Shown: in pieces, positions 56,973 through 63,727 of the stretch
Position numbering within the stretch: the first letter of the stretch is position 1
Layout of the letters: each line of letters starts with the position of its first letter
Assembly (NCBI RefSeq): GCF_055900595.2
Contig: NZ_CM148325.1
Reading direction: 5' to 3' (one strand)
DNA length: 64,000 bases
Made by a program: the position numbers and the translations under genes
Notes under the pieces: generated by a model
The model's input: the letters and a program-made list of their open reading frames with translations, nothing else
The model's database searches: none
What the model was told of the DNA's origin: nothing

Positions 56973-58160
56973 TCAACAAAGCGCGGGCTGCCCCCACGGT
57001 CTTGCACGAATCCCTTTTAACATCAGCACCCACGCAGCAATGATCACCAACGCTAAGATGATAAACAGCGAGGAAGGCGGCAGGCTGGTTAGCACTACGC
57101 CACTCACTAATGGGTTAATCGCCGCACCAAGCCAGCCTAAAGACTGAGCGGAAAAATAGCTGGCTTTCATTCCTGCCGGCGCAATATGGTCAATCAACAT
57201 ATACTCGCCCGGCGCATAAATGATTTCACCGACAGTAAATACCGCAGCTGACATACCCCACAATAGCAGGCTGTTGCCGGAAAAAATAAAACCGACCAGC
57301 CCAATGACGAAACAGAGGGTGCCTGCTGTCATCAGCGCGCGGATGTTAGCCGGGTTAAGGCGGCGGCCCACGGAATATTGCAACGTAACCACCATGGCAG
57401 CATTCACCGGAAGAACAACCGCGACCACCTTTTCGGCAAAATCCCCATCAGCAATCACCATCACATATTGTGAAATGCATGAAGCAAATGCGCCGCTAAC
57501 AAAAGAAGCCAGAAAACCAGAGCAGGTAAACCACAACAGTGCTTTATCTTGTAATAAAACTTTCGGCGACCAGACACTGCCTGTTTCCGTGGCGATGATT
57601 TTCTCGCTGCGCTTTACCCAAATTTGAATGAAAAGCATGGGAAACGCGGAACAGATAGCTGCCAGCCAAAAGGGCAGATTGATGCTCTGCATCACCAACA
57701 GCGTGCCGAGCGGCGGACCGATGGTCCAGCCAATGTTGAGCATGGTGTAGTTGATTGAGAAGATTTTCGTTTTGCTGGTGGACGAAAGATTGTCGGCAAA
57801 CCAGGCTTTCAACACGGTAGCAAAAACGGAATAGGCGCAGTTAATAAGGGCAAAAAAGAGCACCACCAGCGTCACGTTATTCACTAAAGGAATGGCAATA
57901 AAACCGCTAGCGAAGGCGGTAATTGCCAGTAACATATAGCGTTTCTTGTCGAACTTATCCGCCAGGATACCAAAACCGAGGCTAAAAACGACGCCAATAG
58001 TGAGCGCAATTGTCATCGCATAACCGATTAGATCGACACTCAGGCTGTACTGGCGACTCAAGTAAATGGTCATAAATGGCAGCGTAGCGCCGCGTCCGAT
58101 GGTTAATAACAACGACGAGGCAAGAAGGGCGCTGGTAGAGCGTCGTAGGGATAAGTTCAT
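56973..58160 (-). CDS. ydeE: MFS transporter YdeE
   Basis: 395 aa, 12-TM MFS. Confidence 0.85.
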   Translation of the reverse strand: MNLSLRRSTSALLASSLLLTIGRGATLPFMTIYLSRQYSLSVDLIGYAMTIALTIGVVFSLGFGILADKFDKKRYMLLAITAFASGFIAIPLVNNVTLVVLFFALINCAYSVFATVLKAWFADNLSSTSKTKIFSINYTMLNIGWTIGPPLGTLLVMQSINLPFWLAAICSAFPMLFIQIWVKRSEKIIATETGSVWSPKVLLQDKALLWFTCSGFLASFVSGAFASCISQYVMVIADGDFAEKVVAVVLPVNAAMVVTLQYSVGRRLNPANIRALMTAGTLCFVIGLVGFIFSGNSLLLWGMSAAVFTVGEIIYAPGEYMLIDHIAPAGMKASYFSAQSLGWLGAAINPLVSGVVLTSLPPSSLFIILALVIIAAWVLMLKGIRARPWGQPALC

Positions 58161-58354
58161 TTGTCTGTCCGGCAGTGCGTTTCGTTATGTTTTGTTTTAG
58201 AGATGTAAAGAAATAGCATGGCAAAAATCCGAAGTATAGCGACTTATTTGCGCATTAATGCCGTCGTAACCGGCGACTAACGAATCAACTGTTAAAGAAA
58301 AGTAAATTCAGCTAAGTTGATTGCTTACAAAAGATGAAATTCAGAGGCGGTAGA

Positions 58355-59254
58355 ATGTCGCGAAAAGATGGGGTGTTGGCGCTACTGGTAGTGGTCGTAT
58401 GGGGGCTAAATTTTGTGGTCATCAAAGTGGGGCTTCATAACATGCCACCGCTGATGCTGGCCGGTTTGCGCTTTATGCTAGTCGCTTTTCCGGCCATCTT
58501 TTTTGTCGCACGACCGAAAGTACCACTGAATTTGCTGCTGGGGTATGGATTAACCATCAGTTTTGCGCAGTTTGCCTTTCTGTTCTGTGCCATAAATTTT
58601 GGTATGCCTGCTGGGCTGGCCTCACTGGTATTACAGGCTCAGGCGTTTTTTACTATTGTGCTCGGTGCGTTTACTTTTGGCGAACGGCTGCACGGTAAGC
58701 AACTGGCGGGGATCGCGTTAGCGATTTTTGGCGTACTGGTGTTAATCGAAGATAGTTTTAACGGTCAGCATGTGGCGATGCTCGGCTTTATGTTGACCCT
58801 GGCGGCAGCATTTAGTTGGGCGTGCGGCAATATCTTCAATAAAAAAATAATGTCACACTCAACGCGTCCGGCAGTGATGTCGCTGGTCATCTGGAGCGCA
58901 TTAATCCCGATCATTCCTTTCTTTGTTGCCTCGCTGATTCTCGATGGTTCCGCAACCATGATTCACAGCCTGGTCACTATCGATATGACCACCATCTTGT
59001 CTCTGATGTATCTGGCGTTTGTGGCGACAATTGTTGGTTATGGGATCTGGGGGACGTTACTGGGACGCTATGAAACCTGGCGGGTTGCACCGTTATCGTT
59101 ACTGGTGCCCGTAGTAGGACTGGCAAGTGCAGCACTATTATTGGATGAACGCTTAACGGGTCTGCAATTCTTTGGTGCGGTGCTCATTATGACCGGGCTA
59201 TATATCAATGTGTTTGGTATGCGGTGGCGTAAAACCGTGAAAGTGAGAGGCTAA
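58355..59254 (+). CDS. eamA: Cysteine/O-acetylserine exporter EamA
   Basis: MSRKDGVLALLVVVVWGLNFVVIKVGL...; EamA/DMT family. Confidence 0.85.
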   Translation: MSRKDGVLALLVVVVWGLNFVVIKVGLHNMPPLMLAGLRFMLVAFPAIFFVARPKVPLNLLLGYGLTISFAQFAFLFCAINFGMPAGLASLVLQAQAFFTIVLGAFTFGERLHGKQLAGIALAIFGVLVLIEDSFNGQHVAMLGFMLTLAAAFSWACGNIFNKKIMSHSTRPAVMSLVIWSALIPIIPFFVASLILDGSATMIHSLVTIDMTTILSLMYLAFVATIVGYGIWGTLLGRYETWRVAPLSLLVPVVGLASAALLLDERLTGLQFFGAVLIMTGLYINVFGMRWRKTVKVRG

Positions 59255-59284
59255 AAGGCCCCGAGATGTCGGGGCCAGAATAAA

Positions 59285-59503
59285 TTACATAGCGTGTTGA
59301 TTATAATAGGGCACGCCGAGCGCATCCGACTTATCACTGCCAGTACCCATGTGATTTAAATCAAACGGTGGTTGTTCCTGCGATGGGGGAACAACCACCA
59401 CATTGCCACAGGAAGTAACAACCGGCTGCGTGGTTTGTTCCGCAAAGCTCTGCGCAGAGAAGAGAATAAGCGCAGTTACCATTGCGGATAAAAGTGGTTT
59501 CAT
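59285..59503 (-). CDS. marB: MarB periplasmic protein
   Basis: 72 aa with signal peptide; downstream of marA. Confidence 0.85.
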   Translation of the reverse strand: MKPLLSAMVTALILFSAQSFAEQTTQPVVTSCGNVVVVPPSQEQPPFDLNHMGTGSDKSDALGVPYYNQHAM

Positions 59504-59534
59504 GATTGCCTCAGTGACGTTGTCACGTTATCAA

Positions 59535-59918
59535 CTAGCTGTTGTAATGATTTAATGGATGTAAAAAGCGCGATTCGCCCTGCATATTGGTCATCCGGTA
59601 TTTATGTGGCGGAACATCAAAGTAATTTTTGAAGGTTCGGGTCAGAGTTTGTTGCGACTCGAAGCCATATCGTTCTGCCAGATAGAGTATCGGCTCGTTA
59701 CTTTCCTTCAGCTTTTGCGCGATTTCCGTCATCTTACGGCTGCGGATGTATTGGCCTAATGAATGACCGGTTTCTTTTTTAAACATCCGTTGCAGGTGCC
59801 ATTTGGAGTAACCCGAACGCTCTGACACTTTCTCCAGTGACAGTGGCGATTCCAGGTTATCCTCGATCCAGTCCAAAATGCTATGAATGGTAATAGCGTC
59901 AGTATTGCGTCTGGACAT
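59535..59918 (-). CDS. marA: Multiple antibiotic resistance activator MarA (AraC family)
   Basis: [52 protein letters not shown]... Confidence 0.9.
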
Positions 59919-59937
59919 CGTCATACCTCTTTTTTGT

Positions 59938-60372
59938 TTACGGCAGGACTTTCTTAAGCAAATGCTCAAGTGTTGCCACTTCGTCCGCCGTCAGGTTTTT
60001 TGTTAATTCTTGATGCAGGTCCTGGCCAACTAATTGATGGCATTGTTCACATATTGCCGCGCCGCTGGTGGTAAGTTTTACCAGTACGCCGCGCTTATCA
60101 TTCGGGTTCGGCAACCTTTCCACCCAGCCTTTACAAACCAGGCGATCCAGCATACGGGTCAGCGCTCCCAGGTCGACCGACAACACTTTTTTCAGTTCAA
60201 CCGGAGTAATACACGACGCGCAGCGGATAGAGCAGAGCACCTTAAACTGTGCCGCGGTAATATCCAGCGGAGACAGATACTCGTTAAGCAGGCGATCTTT
60301 CTTCTGATTAACCATATGGATTAAGCGACCCAATGGAATAATTTCATTGAACAGATCGCTGGTACTTTTCAC
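59938..60372 (-). CDS. marR: Repressor MarR
   Basis: [51 protein letters not shown]... Confidence 0.9.
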
Positions 60373-60377
60373 ATTAG

Positions 60378-60424
60378 TTGCCCTGGCAAGTAATTAGTTG
60401 CAGGGGATAATATTGCCCAGGCAA
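60378..60424. promoter_or_regulatory. marO operator region with two MarR-type palindromes
   Basis: TTGCCCTGGCAA at 60378-60389 and TTGCCCAGGCAA at 60413-60424, directly upstream of marR. Confidence 0.7.
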
Positions 60425-60583
60425 GTATAAGTCAAATGAATGAATTGACCGATGCCACGTTTTGCTAAATCGGTTCAAGTTTTGGTCAATGCGATTCAAG
60501 GCTAGCTAAAGAGTGACACTTTATCGTTGTTTACCCCTTATACTTTTCGCTGATAACCCAGATACACAGGATAACAACCACTA

Positions 60584-61249
60584 ATGTTAGATTTGTTTAA
60601 AGCAATAGGCCTGGGGCTGGTGGTGTTACTGCCGTTAGCTAACCCATTAACAACTGTCGCGTTATTTCTTGGTCTGGCAGGCAACATGAACAGTGCCGAA
60701 CGTAATCGTCAGTCGTTGATGGCCTCGGTGTACGTCTTTGCCATCATGATGGTGGCGTATTACGCCGGGCAACTGGTGATGGATACATTTGGCATTTCGA
60801 TTCCCGGTCTGCGAATTGCAGGCGGCTTAATCGTCGCGTTTATCGGTTTTCGGATGCTCTTTCCGCAACAGAAAGCGATTGATTCACCGGAAGCGAAAAG
60901 CAAGTCGGAAGAGCTGGAAGATGAACCCAGCGCCAATATTGCCTTTGTACCTCTGGCAATGCCTAGTACCGCCGGTCCGGGAACCATTGCGATGATTATT
61001 AGCTCGGCGTCCACTGTGCGTCAGAGTTCAACCTTCGCTGATTGGGTACTGATGGCTGCGCCGCCGCTGATCTTTTTCCTGGTGGCGGTTATTTTGTGGG
61101 GAAGCCTACGCAGCTCTGGCGCAATTATGCGGCTGGTGGGCAAGGGGGGAATTGAAGCGATCTCCCGTCTGATGGGATTCCTGCTGGTATGTATGGGTGT
61201 GCAGTTTATTATTAACGGCATCCTGGAAATCATTAAAACGTATCATTAA
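60584..61249 (+). CDS. marC: MarC-family inner membrane protein
   Basis: 221-aa membrane protein divergent from marRAB. Confidence 0.85.
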
Positions 61250-61273
61250 AAAAGGCCCGAATGGGCCTTTCAA

Positions 61274-62464
61274 CTATTGCGTCTGTTCTTCGAGTGTCAC
61301 TGGCCAGCGGCGAAAAATGATGATTGACCATATTAACGCGGCAAAAGCAGGCACCGCGCCCACATAACCAATCATCGACATTGACCAGTGCAGACTGACC
61401 TGATTACCTACCAACGCGCCAGCGCCGATTCCAATATTAAATATTCCCGAGAATAGCGCCATCGCGACGTCGGTGGCATCTGGTGCCAGCGCCAGCACTT
61501 TAACCTGCATACCAAGCCCGATGATCATCATCGCGATCCCCCAGAAAATACTCAGCACCCCGAGGTGTATTTCACTGTTCGCCGCAGGTAGCAGCAGTGC
61601 GAGGCACACCAGCAACAACGCAATCGCCGTACTCACCAACGCAGACGCATACTGATTACCCAGTTTACCGAAAATCACGCTGCCAATAATGCCCGCACCA
61701 CCGAGTAATAACAGTAATGCCGTGGCAAAGTTGGCGCTGAATCCCGCAATGTTTTGCACAAAAGGCTCGATATAGCTGTATGCCGTGTAATGGGCGGTGA
61801 CAACCACCACAGTTAACAAATAAATGCTCATCAATGCCGGGCGGCGGAACAATAGCGGAAGGCTTTTCAACGACCCTGAATGCTCGCTGGGGAGTAAGGG
61901 AAGTAACTTAATCAGGCACAGAAGGGTGATAAATGCCCCGATACCGATCGCGAAGAAGGTCATACGCCAACCGAAATACTGCCCCACAATGCGCCCGAGA
62001 GGTAAACCTAATACCATCGCCAGAGCTGTACCGGTGGCAATTAAACTCAATGCCTGTGCTCGCTTTCCGGCCGGAGCCATACGGATCGCCAGAGACGCCG
62101 TAATCGACCAGAAAATCGCATGTGCAAAAGCTACACCAATGCGACTGATCACCAGAACGGTAAAGCTCCACGACAAAAAAGACAGTACATGGCTGGCAAT
62201 AAACACCACAAACAGGCAGATCAGTAATTTGCGGCGTTCAACCTGGCTTGTCATTAGCATAAAAGGCAATGACATTAGCGCCACTACCCATGCATAAATG
62301 GTTAACATGATACCGACTTGAGCGGTTTGCATATGGAAACTTTGTGCGATGTCAGAAAGCAGGCCAACAGGGACAAATTCGGTAGTATTGAAGATGAAAG
62401 CGGCGACTGCCAGCGTAACGACCCGTAGCCACGCCACTTTGCGGGAAACAGTGTTTGTTGTCAT
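61274..62464 (-). CDS. sotB: MFS sugar efflux transporter (SotB/YdeA)
   Basis: 396-aa MFS protein. Confidence 0.85.
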
Positions 62465-62611
62465 AACAGATTATCGGGTGAGTTGCGAAAAGTAATGAAA
62501 TGATCTTAAAACGGTTAATGATGTGAATACAATGCATTTGTGATCTGGATCGCATTTCCATCTCTCTGACGGTTGTTCTGTCACGCGTCAGAGAGTTGTT
62601 AACATCACATT

Positions 62612-63727
62612 TTAATGACGATCAGGAAGGTCTGGCGTTTTGGTGGCTGATGGTAAAGGTGGCCTCACAGGGGAACGAGGCCTGTTGTCCAGTAGTTCTT
62701 CGTTACTAATTTTGGGCGGAATTTCATTTTTTACAAAAAGTTTTAAAATCTTGCGTGCCATACGATGGATACTTTTATCTTCACTTAATAATGCCGGTAT
62801 CAACACATCATTCAGGTCATTTTCATTAGGTTTCATAAAAATTTGAAAGTGCAATAACATATTTGTAAAAAATAAGAATAGACTCTGAAAGTGAGGTATT
62901 TCTTTGTTTGATAAAAGCGATAAAAAGCAGATACAAACTTCAGGTAGTACTTGTTTGTTAGAACCTAATGAATCCATGAGGTTTTGTAATAACTCCTCTT
63001 TTAATGGGTTATCCTTTATGTCGTAGATGGCGGTGATTAAGTTTGGGTTTTTATTCGCGAACCACCTGTGGACCTGCGGCTTATTCCATAGTCGTGGGAG
63101 TATGACAAAATTACCACGAGAGATAAAGTTCAGTACGAATAAATCAAACTGACGTAAGTAATCTGCAGCGGTATGATGCTCAGGAGGAAGAGGTTCAATA
63201 TGTGGAGTATGAGACCTTTTGATGGGGACGCCGGGGCTGATCATTGGAAATTGTTCAATAAAGTCATTAAGAAACAGAAAGAGCACACGCTCGACGCCGG
63301 TCTGAAAGGCCCGACCCATAGTGACAGGCTTTGGGTCGGGAGCACAATAAATATTAATTTCCCCATCGTGGCGAAAATTATCTAAATAAATAGGGCTTAA
63401 ATTTATTACTACCTGAAATTCAATGTTTTCTTTATGTCTTCCATTCTTAACAGGATAAGTGAGTTTAAATTGAACCTTTTCATTGTATAGCGTGTCGTTA
63501 TCTCGGAAAGTTGTCCTCTGTATATAAGATAGGTTATCAAGATTATTGAATATCTTTTTGGTGTTTGAATTGATGTTTAAAGACGTACGCCACTCCTCAT
63601 CACATATTATAATGCTGAGCGCATCAATAAAATCCTTCAAAACTTCTTTTACCTGAGGTGCAATATTGCGAACGGGAAAATCATCAGGAAGTGAGATGAA
63701 ATTGCTGATGCTTACTGGCGTAACCAT
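62612..63727 (-). CDS. yneK: Uncharacterised protein (YneK-like)
   Basis: 371-aa ORF in AT-rich DNA; position next to ydeA matches yneK. Confidence 0.7.
   Translation of the reverse strand: MVTPVSISNFISLPDDFPVRNIAPQVKEVLKDFIDALSIIICDEEWRTSLNINSNTKKIFNNLDNLSYIQRTTFRDNDTLYNEKVQFKLTYPVKNGRHKENIEFQVVINLSPIYLDNFRHDGEINIYCAPDPKPVTMGRAFQTGVERVLFLFLNDFIEQFPMISPGVPIKRSHTPHIEPLPPEHHTAADYLRQFDLFVLNFISRGNFVILPRLWNKPQVHRWFANKNPNLITAIYDIKDNPLKEELLQNLMDSLGSNKQVLPEVCICFLSLLSNKEIPHFQSLFLFFTNMLLHFQIFMKPNENDLNDVLIPALLSEDKSIHRMARKILKLFVKNEIPPKISNEELLDNRPRSPVRPPLPSATKTPDLPDRH

Follow-up and report, generated by a model that had tools for sequence, protein, structure and literature searches.

Full repression of the marRAB operon of Escherichia coli in vivo reportedly requires both of the MarR sites that lie in its control region, marO. 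In the published descriptions of this operator, site I is placed between the -35 and -10 elements and site II near the translation start, overlapping the ribosome-binding site (PMC3920692), and about 21 bp are protected by MarR dimers at each of the two similar sites (PMC2724296, citing Martin and Rosner 1995). By ChIP-seq, MarR was bound solely at the marRAB promoter (PMC5684230), and Sort-Seq showed a marR-dependent repressor footprint at the same promoter and recovered the Fis, MarA, RNA polymerase (RNAP) and MarR sites, the downstream MarR site overlapping the ribosome-binding site and making a contribution less clear than that of the upstream one (bioRxiv 10.1101/239335). A comparable arrangement is described for the SCO3205-like MarR-family regulators of Actinobacteria, which have, like marO, paired pseudopalindromic operators in a divergent intergenic region beside an autoregulated MarR-family gene (PDB 3ZPL; PMC3737563).

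The window analysed here, a stretch of 64,000 nucleotides, contains a region of this kind at 60373-60583, which is the exact gap between the GTG start of marR (60372, minus strand) and the ATG of marC (60584, plus strand). We consider it almost certain that this interval is marO, the control region of the marRAB operon of E. coli, and that MarR sites I and II have the two palindromes found in it as their cores. An earlier note on this DNA had described two perfect TTGCC-N2-GGCAA palindromes in the interval, directly upstream of marR in the divergent marC/marRAB control region. An exact search for TTGCCNNGGCAA over the 64,000 bases of the window recovered both, with exactly two matches at 60378-60389 and 60413-60424, which read TTGCCCTGGCAA and TTGCCCAGGCAA, respectively, on the plus strand. 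Each is built of perfect 5-bp inverted-repeat arms flanking a 2-bp centre, their starts are 35 bp apart and both fall within the 211-bp interval. The described placement was also correct, one palindrome ending 5 nt before the marR GTG and the other lying in the promoter spacer, and these locations fit the published, mapped sites I and II (PMC3920692; PMC2724296).

The other elements of the region are arranged around the two palindromes. A sigma-70 consensus scan located the marRAB promoter on the minus strand, with a -35 hexamer TTGACT (60430-60435), a 17-nt spacer and a -10 hexamer TATTAT (60407-60412) that together match the consensus at 10 of 12 positions. Transcription of marRAB presumably starts at about 60399-60400, a position that we take from that of the -10 hexamer and from the mapped K-12 start. 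The site I core (60413-60424, minus strand; TTGCCTGGGCAA on the marR strand), assigned by pattern match, position and identity with K-12, lies within the promoter spacer, flanked by the two hexamers, and, read from 60424 to 60413, abuts the -10. The site II core (60378-60389, minus strand; TTGCCAGGGCAA on the marR strand), assigned by pattern match and K-12 identity, lies downstream of the -10 hexamer and includes AGGG (60384-60381), the only Shine-Dalgarno-like motif. A search allowing one mismatch revealed no third MarR-like site in the marR/marC intergenic region. Upstream of the -35 hexamer, the marbox of the activators MarA, SoxS and Rob occupies 60452-60471 (plus strand), and its core ccacgttttgctaaa, at 60455-60469, has the same letters as the MarA ChIP-seq site reported for marC<>marR (PMC5684230).

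The earlier note had proposed alignment with a reference marO as a check. In the comparison with E. coli K-12 MG1655, the 99 nt that run from the start of marR through the marbox (60373-60471) showed no differences, with a base-for-base match in both palindromes, in the two promoter hexamers and in the marbox. K-12 marO has the same letters in site II, the -10, site I, the -35 and the marbox, with the same gene order and the same distance to the marR GTG, and the locus studied here differs from it in four intergenic SNPs (60485, 60496, 60526 and 60582), all of them in the marC-proximal half, in the distal 112 nt, and in three amino-acid polymorphisms of MarR. The surrounding DNA has diverged considerably more: over the mar locus as a whole (57992-62989) there are 244 differences from K-12 in about 5 kb, or 4.9%, and the divergence by gene reaches 6.1% in eamA, 6.4% in marB and 4.5% in ydeA. 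At 4.9%, simple arithmetic gives about 5 differences expected in 99 nt, against none seen, and an operator core free of changes fits purifying selection. In this diverged locus the SNPs cluster in the marC-proximal, Fis-side half of marO, while the core operator and MarA are unchanged. Since the features that define marO at the level of sequence are all present, the region can be taken as marO itself and not as a mere functional analogue, and it is marO that fixes the locus identity of this part of the window. The MarR operator sites of the window are, in this sense, already known, the operator having been characterised since 1995. The closest complete genome found was that of strain EC42405 (bovine, France), which is 99.2% identical over 7.6 kb, so that the window derives from a strain related to EC42405 but distinct from it.

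The operator is also well conserved among E. coli strains and beyond the species. Of 5426 complete E. coli genomes, 5416 contain the 211-bp marO region, and its 67-nt core (GTG to -35) shows 100% identity in approximately 5098 of 5410 E. coli records (about 94%). A scan of the genomes of 100,044 species for two such palindromes 18-28 nt apart gave at least 120 stretches, and among the matches listed the double palindrome was found in at least about 40 enterobacterial species. In every listed enterobacterial species the palindromes are separated by 23-24 nt and site II is followed, after 5-7 nt, by the gene of a MarR orthologue with 72-98% identity. The marO regions of Salmonella enterica, Citrobacter, Enterobacter, Pluralibacter, Cedecea, Atlantibacter, Mangrovibacter and others have palindromes 35-36 bp apart and share with the window the -35 TTGACTTAT, the marbox and the distance of 5-7 nt between site II and the marR start, but differ from it in the central dinucleotides and the inter-site spacer, the gap in many genera being 24 nt and not 23. 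In the enterobacterial alignment, the marbox, -35, site I, -10 and site II stand out as conserved blocks, the variable positions being the central dinucleotide of each palindrome and the spacer between the sites; the -35 TTGACTTAT and a TAnTAT -10 are conserved across the approximately 40 species. As this cross-species set was picked by the pattern itself, the exactness of the arms within it is partly a matter of ascertainment. The loci of Salmonella enterica and Enterobacter soli were picked by protein identity alone, not by the pattern. In Salmonella enterica both palindromes are perfect, and in Enterobacter soli (CP135498.1; stretch L126, 873-1003) site II is perfect and site I has one arm mismatch, TTGCCTGAGCAA, which makes this species a natural case in which marO is conserved apart from an imperfect site I.

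These data also bear on whether the palindromes could be functionless products of chance. In dinucleotide-preserving shuffles, the mean number of TTGCCNNGGCAA matches expected by chance was 0.17 per window, and two or more matches anywhere in the window appeared in 3 of 100 shuffles. However, the two copies lie 35 bp apart in a single 211-bp promoter region, and from the shuffle rate we calculate a probability of the order of 1e-5 to 1e-4 that two chance palindromes would fall, at any place in the window, no more than approximately 50 bp apart. Moreover, the copies are identical to the footprinted K-12 sites, they are kept in about 94% of E. coli genomes, they occur in Salmonella and in about 40 other enterobacterial species at a constant distance from marR, and they fall inside the unchanged 99-nt stretch of a locus diverged by 4.9%. 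The probability of a chance origin is negligible, and we regard it as ruled out by the shuffle statistics, the clustering and the conservation. When one mismatch was allowed in TTGCCNNGGCAA, 7 matches were found in the window against 3.4 expected, which is the chance level, and the five extra matches were all outside the mar region.

With the palindromes taken as MarR sites I and II, the function of the region can be proposed by analogy with K-12. A homodimer of MarR, a winged helix-turn-helix protein, would bind each palindrome; the dimer on site I, between the -35 and -10, would exclude RNA polymerase, and the dimer on site II, in the transcribed leader over the ribosome-binding motif, would add to the repression. 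Inducers such as salicylate would release MarR, and MarA, SoxS or Rob at the upstream marbox, helped by Fis further upstream, would then activate the promoter. We infer from the published K-12 work, and for binding and repression also from data on ETEC, that binding, occlusion of the polymerase and response to inducers would proceed in this way in the strain of the window.

A different role for site II would be one exerted mainly at the RNA level, with a hairpin in the leader hiding the ribosome-binding motif and limiting the translation of marR. Site II is part of the transcribed leader, its palindrome includes AGGG, and the predicted fold pairs UUGC with GCAA, but this hairpin, with a centroid of -3.8 kcal/mol, is weak, and taken as a whole the leader folds no better than its shuffles (z = +1.15, with 181 of 200 shuffles folding at least as well). 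The marR Shine-Dalgarno sequence is reportedly weak and, in the wild-type leader, reportedly not occluded, both observations being attributed to Martin and Rosner in 2004. In addition, the same palindrome occurs in the promoter spacer, which is not transcribed, and this argues for a protein site at the DNA level. We therefore consider an RNA-level role very unlikely. An RNA element was rejected on account of the weak fold of the leader and the Rfam search, which gave no match at E<=1 in 59000-61500.

The same interval may also be read in the direction of marC. The marR/marC interval is a divergent intergenic region, and both palindromes are overlapped by a sigma-70-like sequence that faces marC on the plus strand (CTGGCA, 17-nt spacer, GATAAT; 60383-60411; 9 of 12 matches). 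If this were a promoter, both MarR sites would overlap it and MarR would also repress the divergent marC. Nevertheless, the plus-strand match is weak and at chance level, since two sites were found in the scan against 0.9 expected, the marC ATG is about 170 nt further downstream, and no support for a plus-strand promoter was found in the literature searched, which makes a control of marC by these sites unlikely. Such a gating of marC would supplement the repression of marRAB by MarR at sites I and II, not displace it.

The genes around the operator are those of the mar locus, in agreement with the identity that had been assigned to it from the sequence. The marR gene, for the repressor (59938-60372, minus strand; 144 aa, GTG start), was recognised from the list of open reading frames and by BLASTP; it is accompanied on the minus strand by marA, for the activator (59535-59918; 127 aa, identical to K-12 MarA), and marB (59285-59503; 72 aa, 8 substitutions compared to K-12), and marC is divergent on the plus strand (60584-61249; 221 aa, V158A compared to K-12). 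The group marB-marA-marR-marC is bordered by eamA at one end and by ydeA and yneK at the opposite end, an order also found in K-12 MG1655 and EC42405. The MarR protein is identical to K-12 MarR at 141 of 144 residues (BLASTP, 98%), the differences being A53S, G103S and Y137H; it matches Pfam PF01047 with E=1.5e-18 and the MarR entries 3VOE, 1JGS and 5H3R of the PDB with E down to 1e-91. This exact allele is present on at least 1000 contigs, where it is named MarR in multiple sources. The polymorphisms G103S and Y137H are common in MarR and have no link to resistance (PMC4317672), and their combination is the commonest natural one, again with no association with resistance (PMC4317672; PMC7082582). 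No characterisation of A53S was found in the literature searched on MarR polymorphisms.

These three substitutions raise the question of whether an intact operator could be served by a MarR that binds it poorly, leaving the operon constitutively derepressed. The presence of three changes relative to K-12, with A53S not found characterised in the literature searched, could be read in this way, but the exact protein is as widespread as expected of a common natural allele, two of its three changes form the commonest natural combination, without association with resistance, and its score to the Pfam MarR domain is strong. A defective MarR is thus extremely improbable. It is likewise very improbable that, with the operator unchanged, this lineage tunes mar induction differently by means of A53S, the altered MarB or the distal SNPs.

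Site II is bracketed by 9-bp direct repeats, ATTAGTTGC, at 60373-60381 and 60393-60401 (plus strand), which are 20 bp apart. In resistant laboratory mutants, a 20-bp insertion, TACTTGCCAGGGCAACTAAT, has been described at the start of marR (PMC8757474; PMC3920692, strain W49), and the repeat ATTAGTTGC matches the ends of this recurrent marO duplication. The repeats are likely the slippage substrate from which the known 20-bp duplication arises. In the window, neither a duplication nor a deletion of 20 bp was found at site II, and the arrangement is the single-copy, wild-type one. With marR at full length, a common MarR allele and no 20-bp duplication, the intact repressor-operator arrangement claimed in the earlier note finds support as far as can be judged from the letters. 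The window thus has a wild-type mar control region, in which both MarR sites are free of mutations, the 20-bp duplication is absent and marR is not truncated, and from this region one would therefore not predict a constitutive Mar (multidrug efflux) phenotype.

Among the complete genomes of E. coli, marO was matched only in part in strains H1827/12, HUE1 and DETEC-P351, and in HUE1 the aligned part is without site II and the -10. These partial matches suggest natural deletions or insertions in the operator of the three strains. Another record of the scan, SMXE01000224.1 (stretch L013), is labelled as a metagenome-assembled genome (MAG) of Caldithrix sp. and contains an E. coli mar locus with a marO identical to that of K-12; its MarR is 97% identical to that of the window, and over 7.4 kb its DNA shares 94.9% identity with the window. 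Most probably, this record is an Escherichia contig that contaminates the MAG or was mis-binned into it.

The pattern was also found in other bacteria. At least about 35 genomes of actinobacteria (Streptomyces, Actinoplanes, Micromonospora, Nocardia, Arthrobacter and others) have 2-4 copies of (AC)TTGCCnnGGCAA(GT) in divergent intergenic regions (stretches L009, L017, L029, L031, L035, L037, L038, L042, L045, L047, L050, L051, L060, L073, L076, L080, L083, L085, L090, L092, L102, L104, L106, L109, L113-L115 and others). On one side of these palindromes there is a gene for a MarR-family protein of about 157 aa, with a Pfam MarR score of 24.3 bits, just below the cutoff of 24.6, and on the other side a gene for a Zn-dehydrogenase, a LigB-type dioxygenase or an EthD protein. 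The half-sites, TTGCC/GGCAA, are those of E. coli marO, but the regulators are only distantly related: the actinobacterial protein has 34% identity with E. coli MarR over 56 aa, and tblastn at 1e-5 did not detect the actinobacterial MarR-family proteins with respect to E. coli MarR. The partner genes (Zn-dependent dehydrogenase, LigB dioxygenase, EthD) are unlike those of mar. The closest solved relative of the actinobacterial regulator is SCO3205 (3ZPL), with E = 5e-28. For SCO3205, the published consensus reads TTnAAnnnTCAA and thus differs from TTGCCnnGGCAA (PMC3737563), and on this ground the actinobacterial TTGCCnnGGCAA loci were rejected as candidates for the SCO3205 operators described there.

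A further group of matches consists of tandem arrays in which a unit containing TTGCCnnGGCAA recurs with a period of about 17-39 nt. Such arrays were seen in Roseiflexaceae, Nostocaceae, Silvimonas and others (L021, 3689-3817; L053, 164-289; L066, 2650-2802; L059, 5288-5350; L110, 15-60) and are unrelated to marR. In the window itself, a large part outside the mar region, at about 7600-45000, is a lambdoid, Qin-like prophage that, by the annotation of EC42405, includes antiterminator, lysis, cold-shock, terminase, portal and tail genes and pinQ. In comparison with the prophage of EC42405 it is a mosaic, with blocks that are 87-99% similar separated by gaps.
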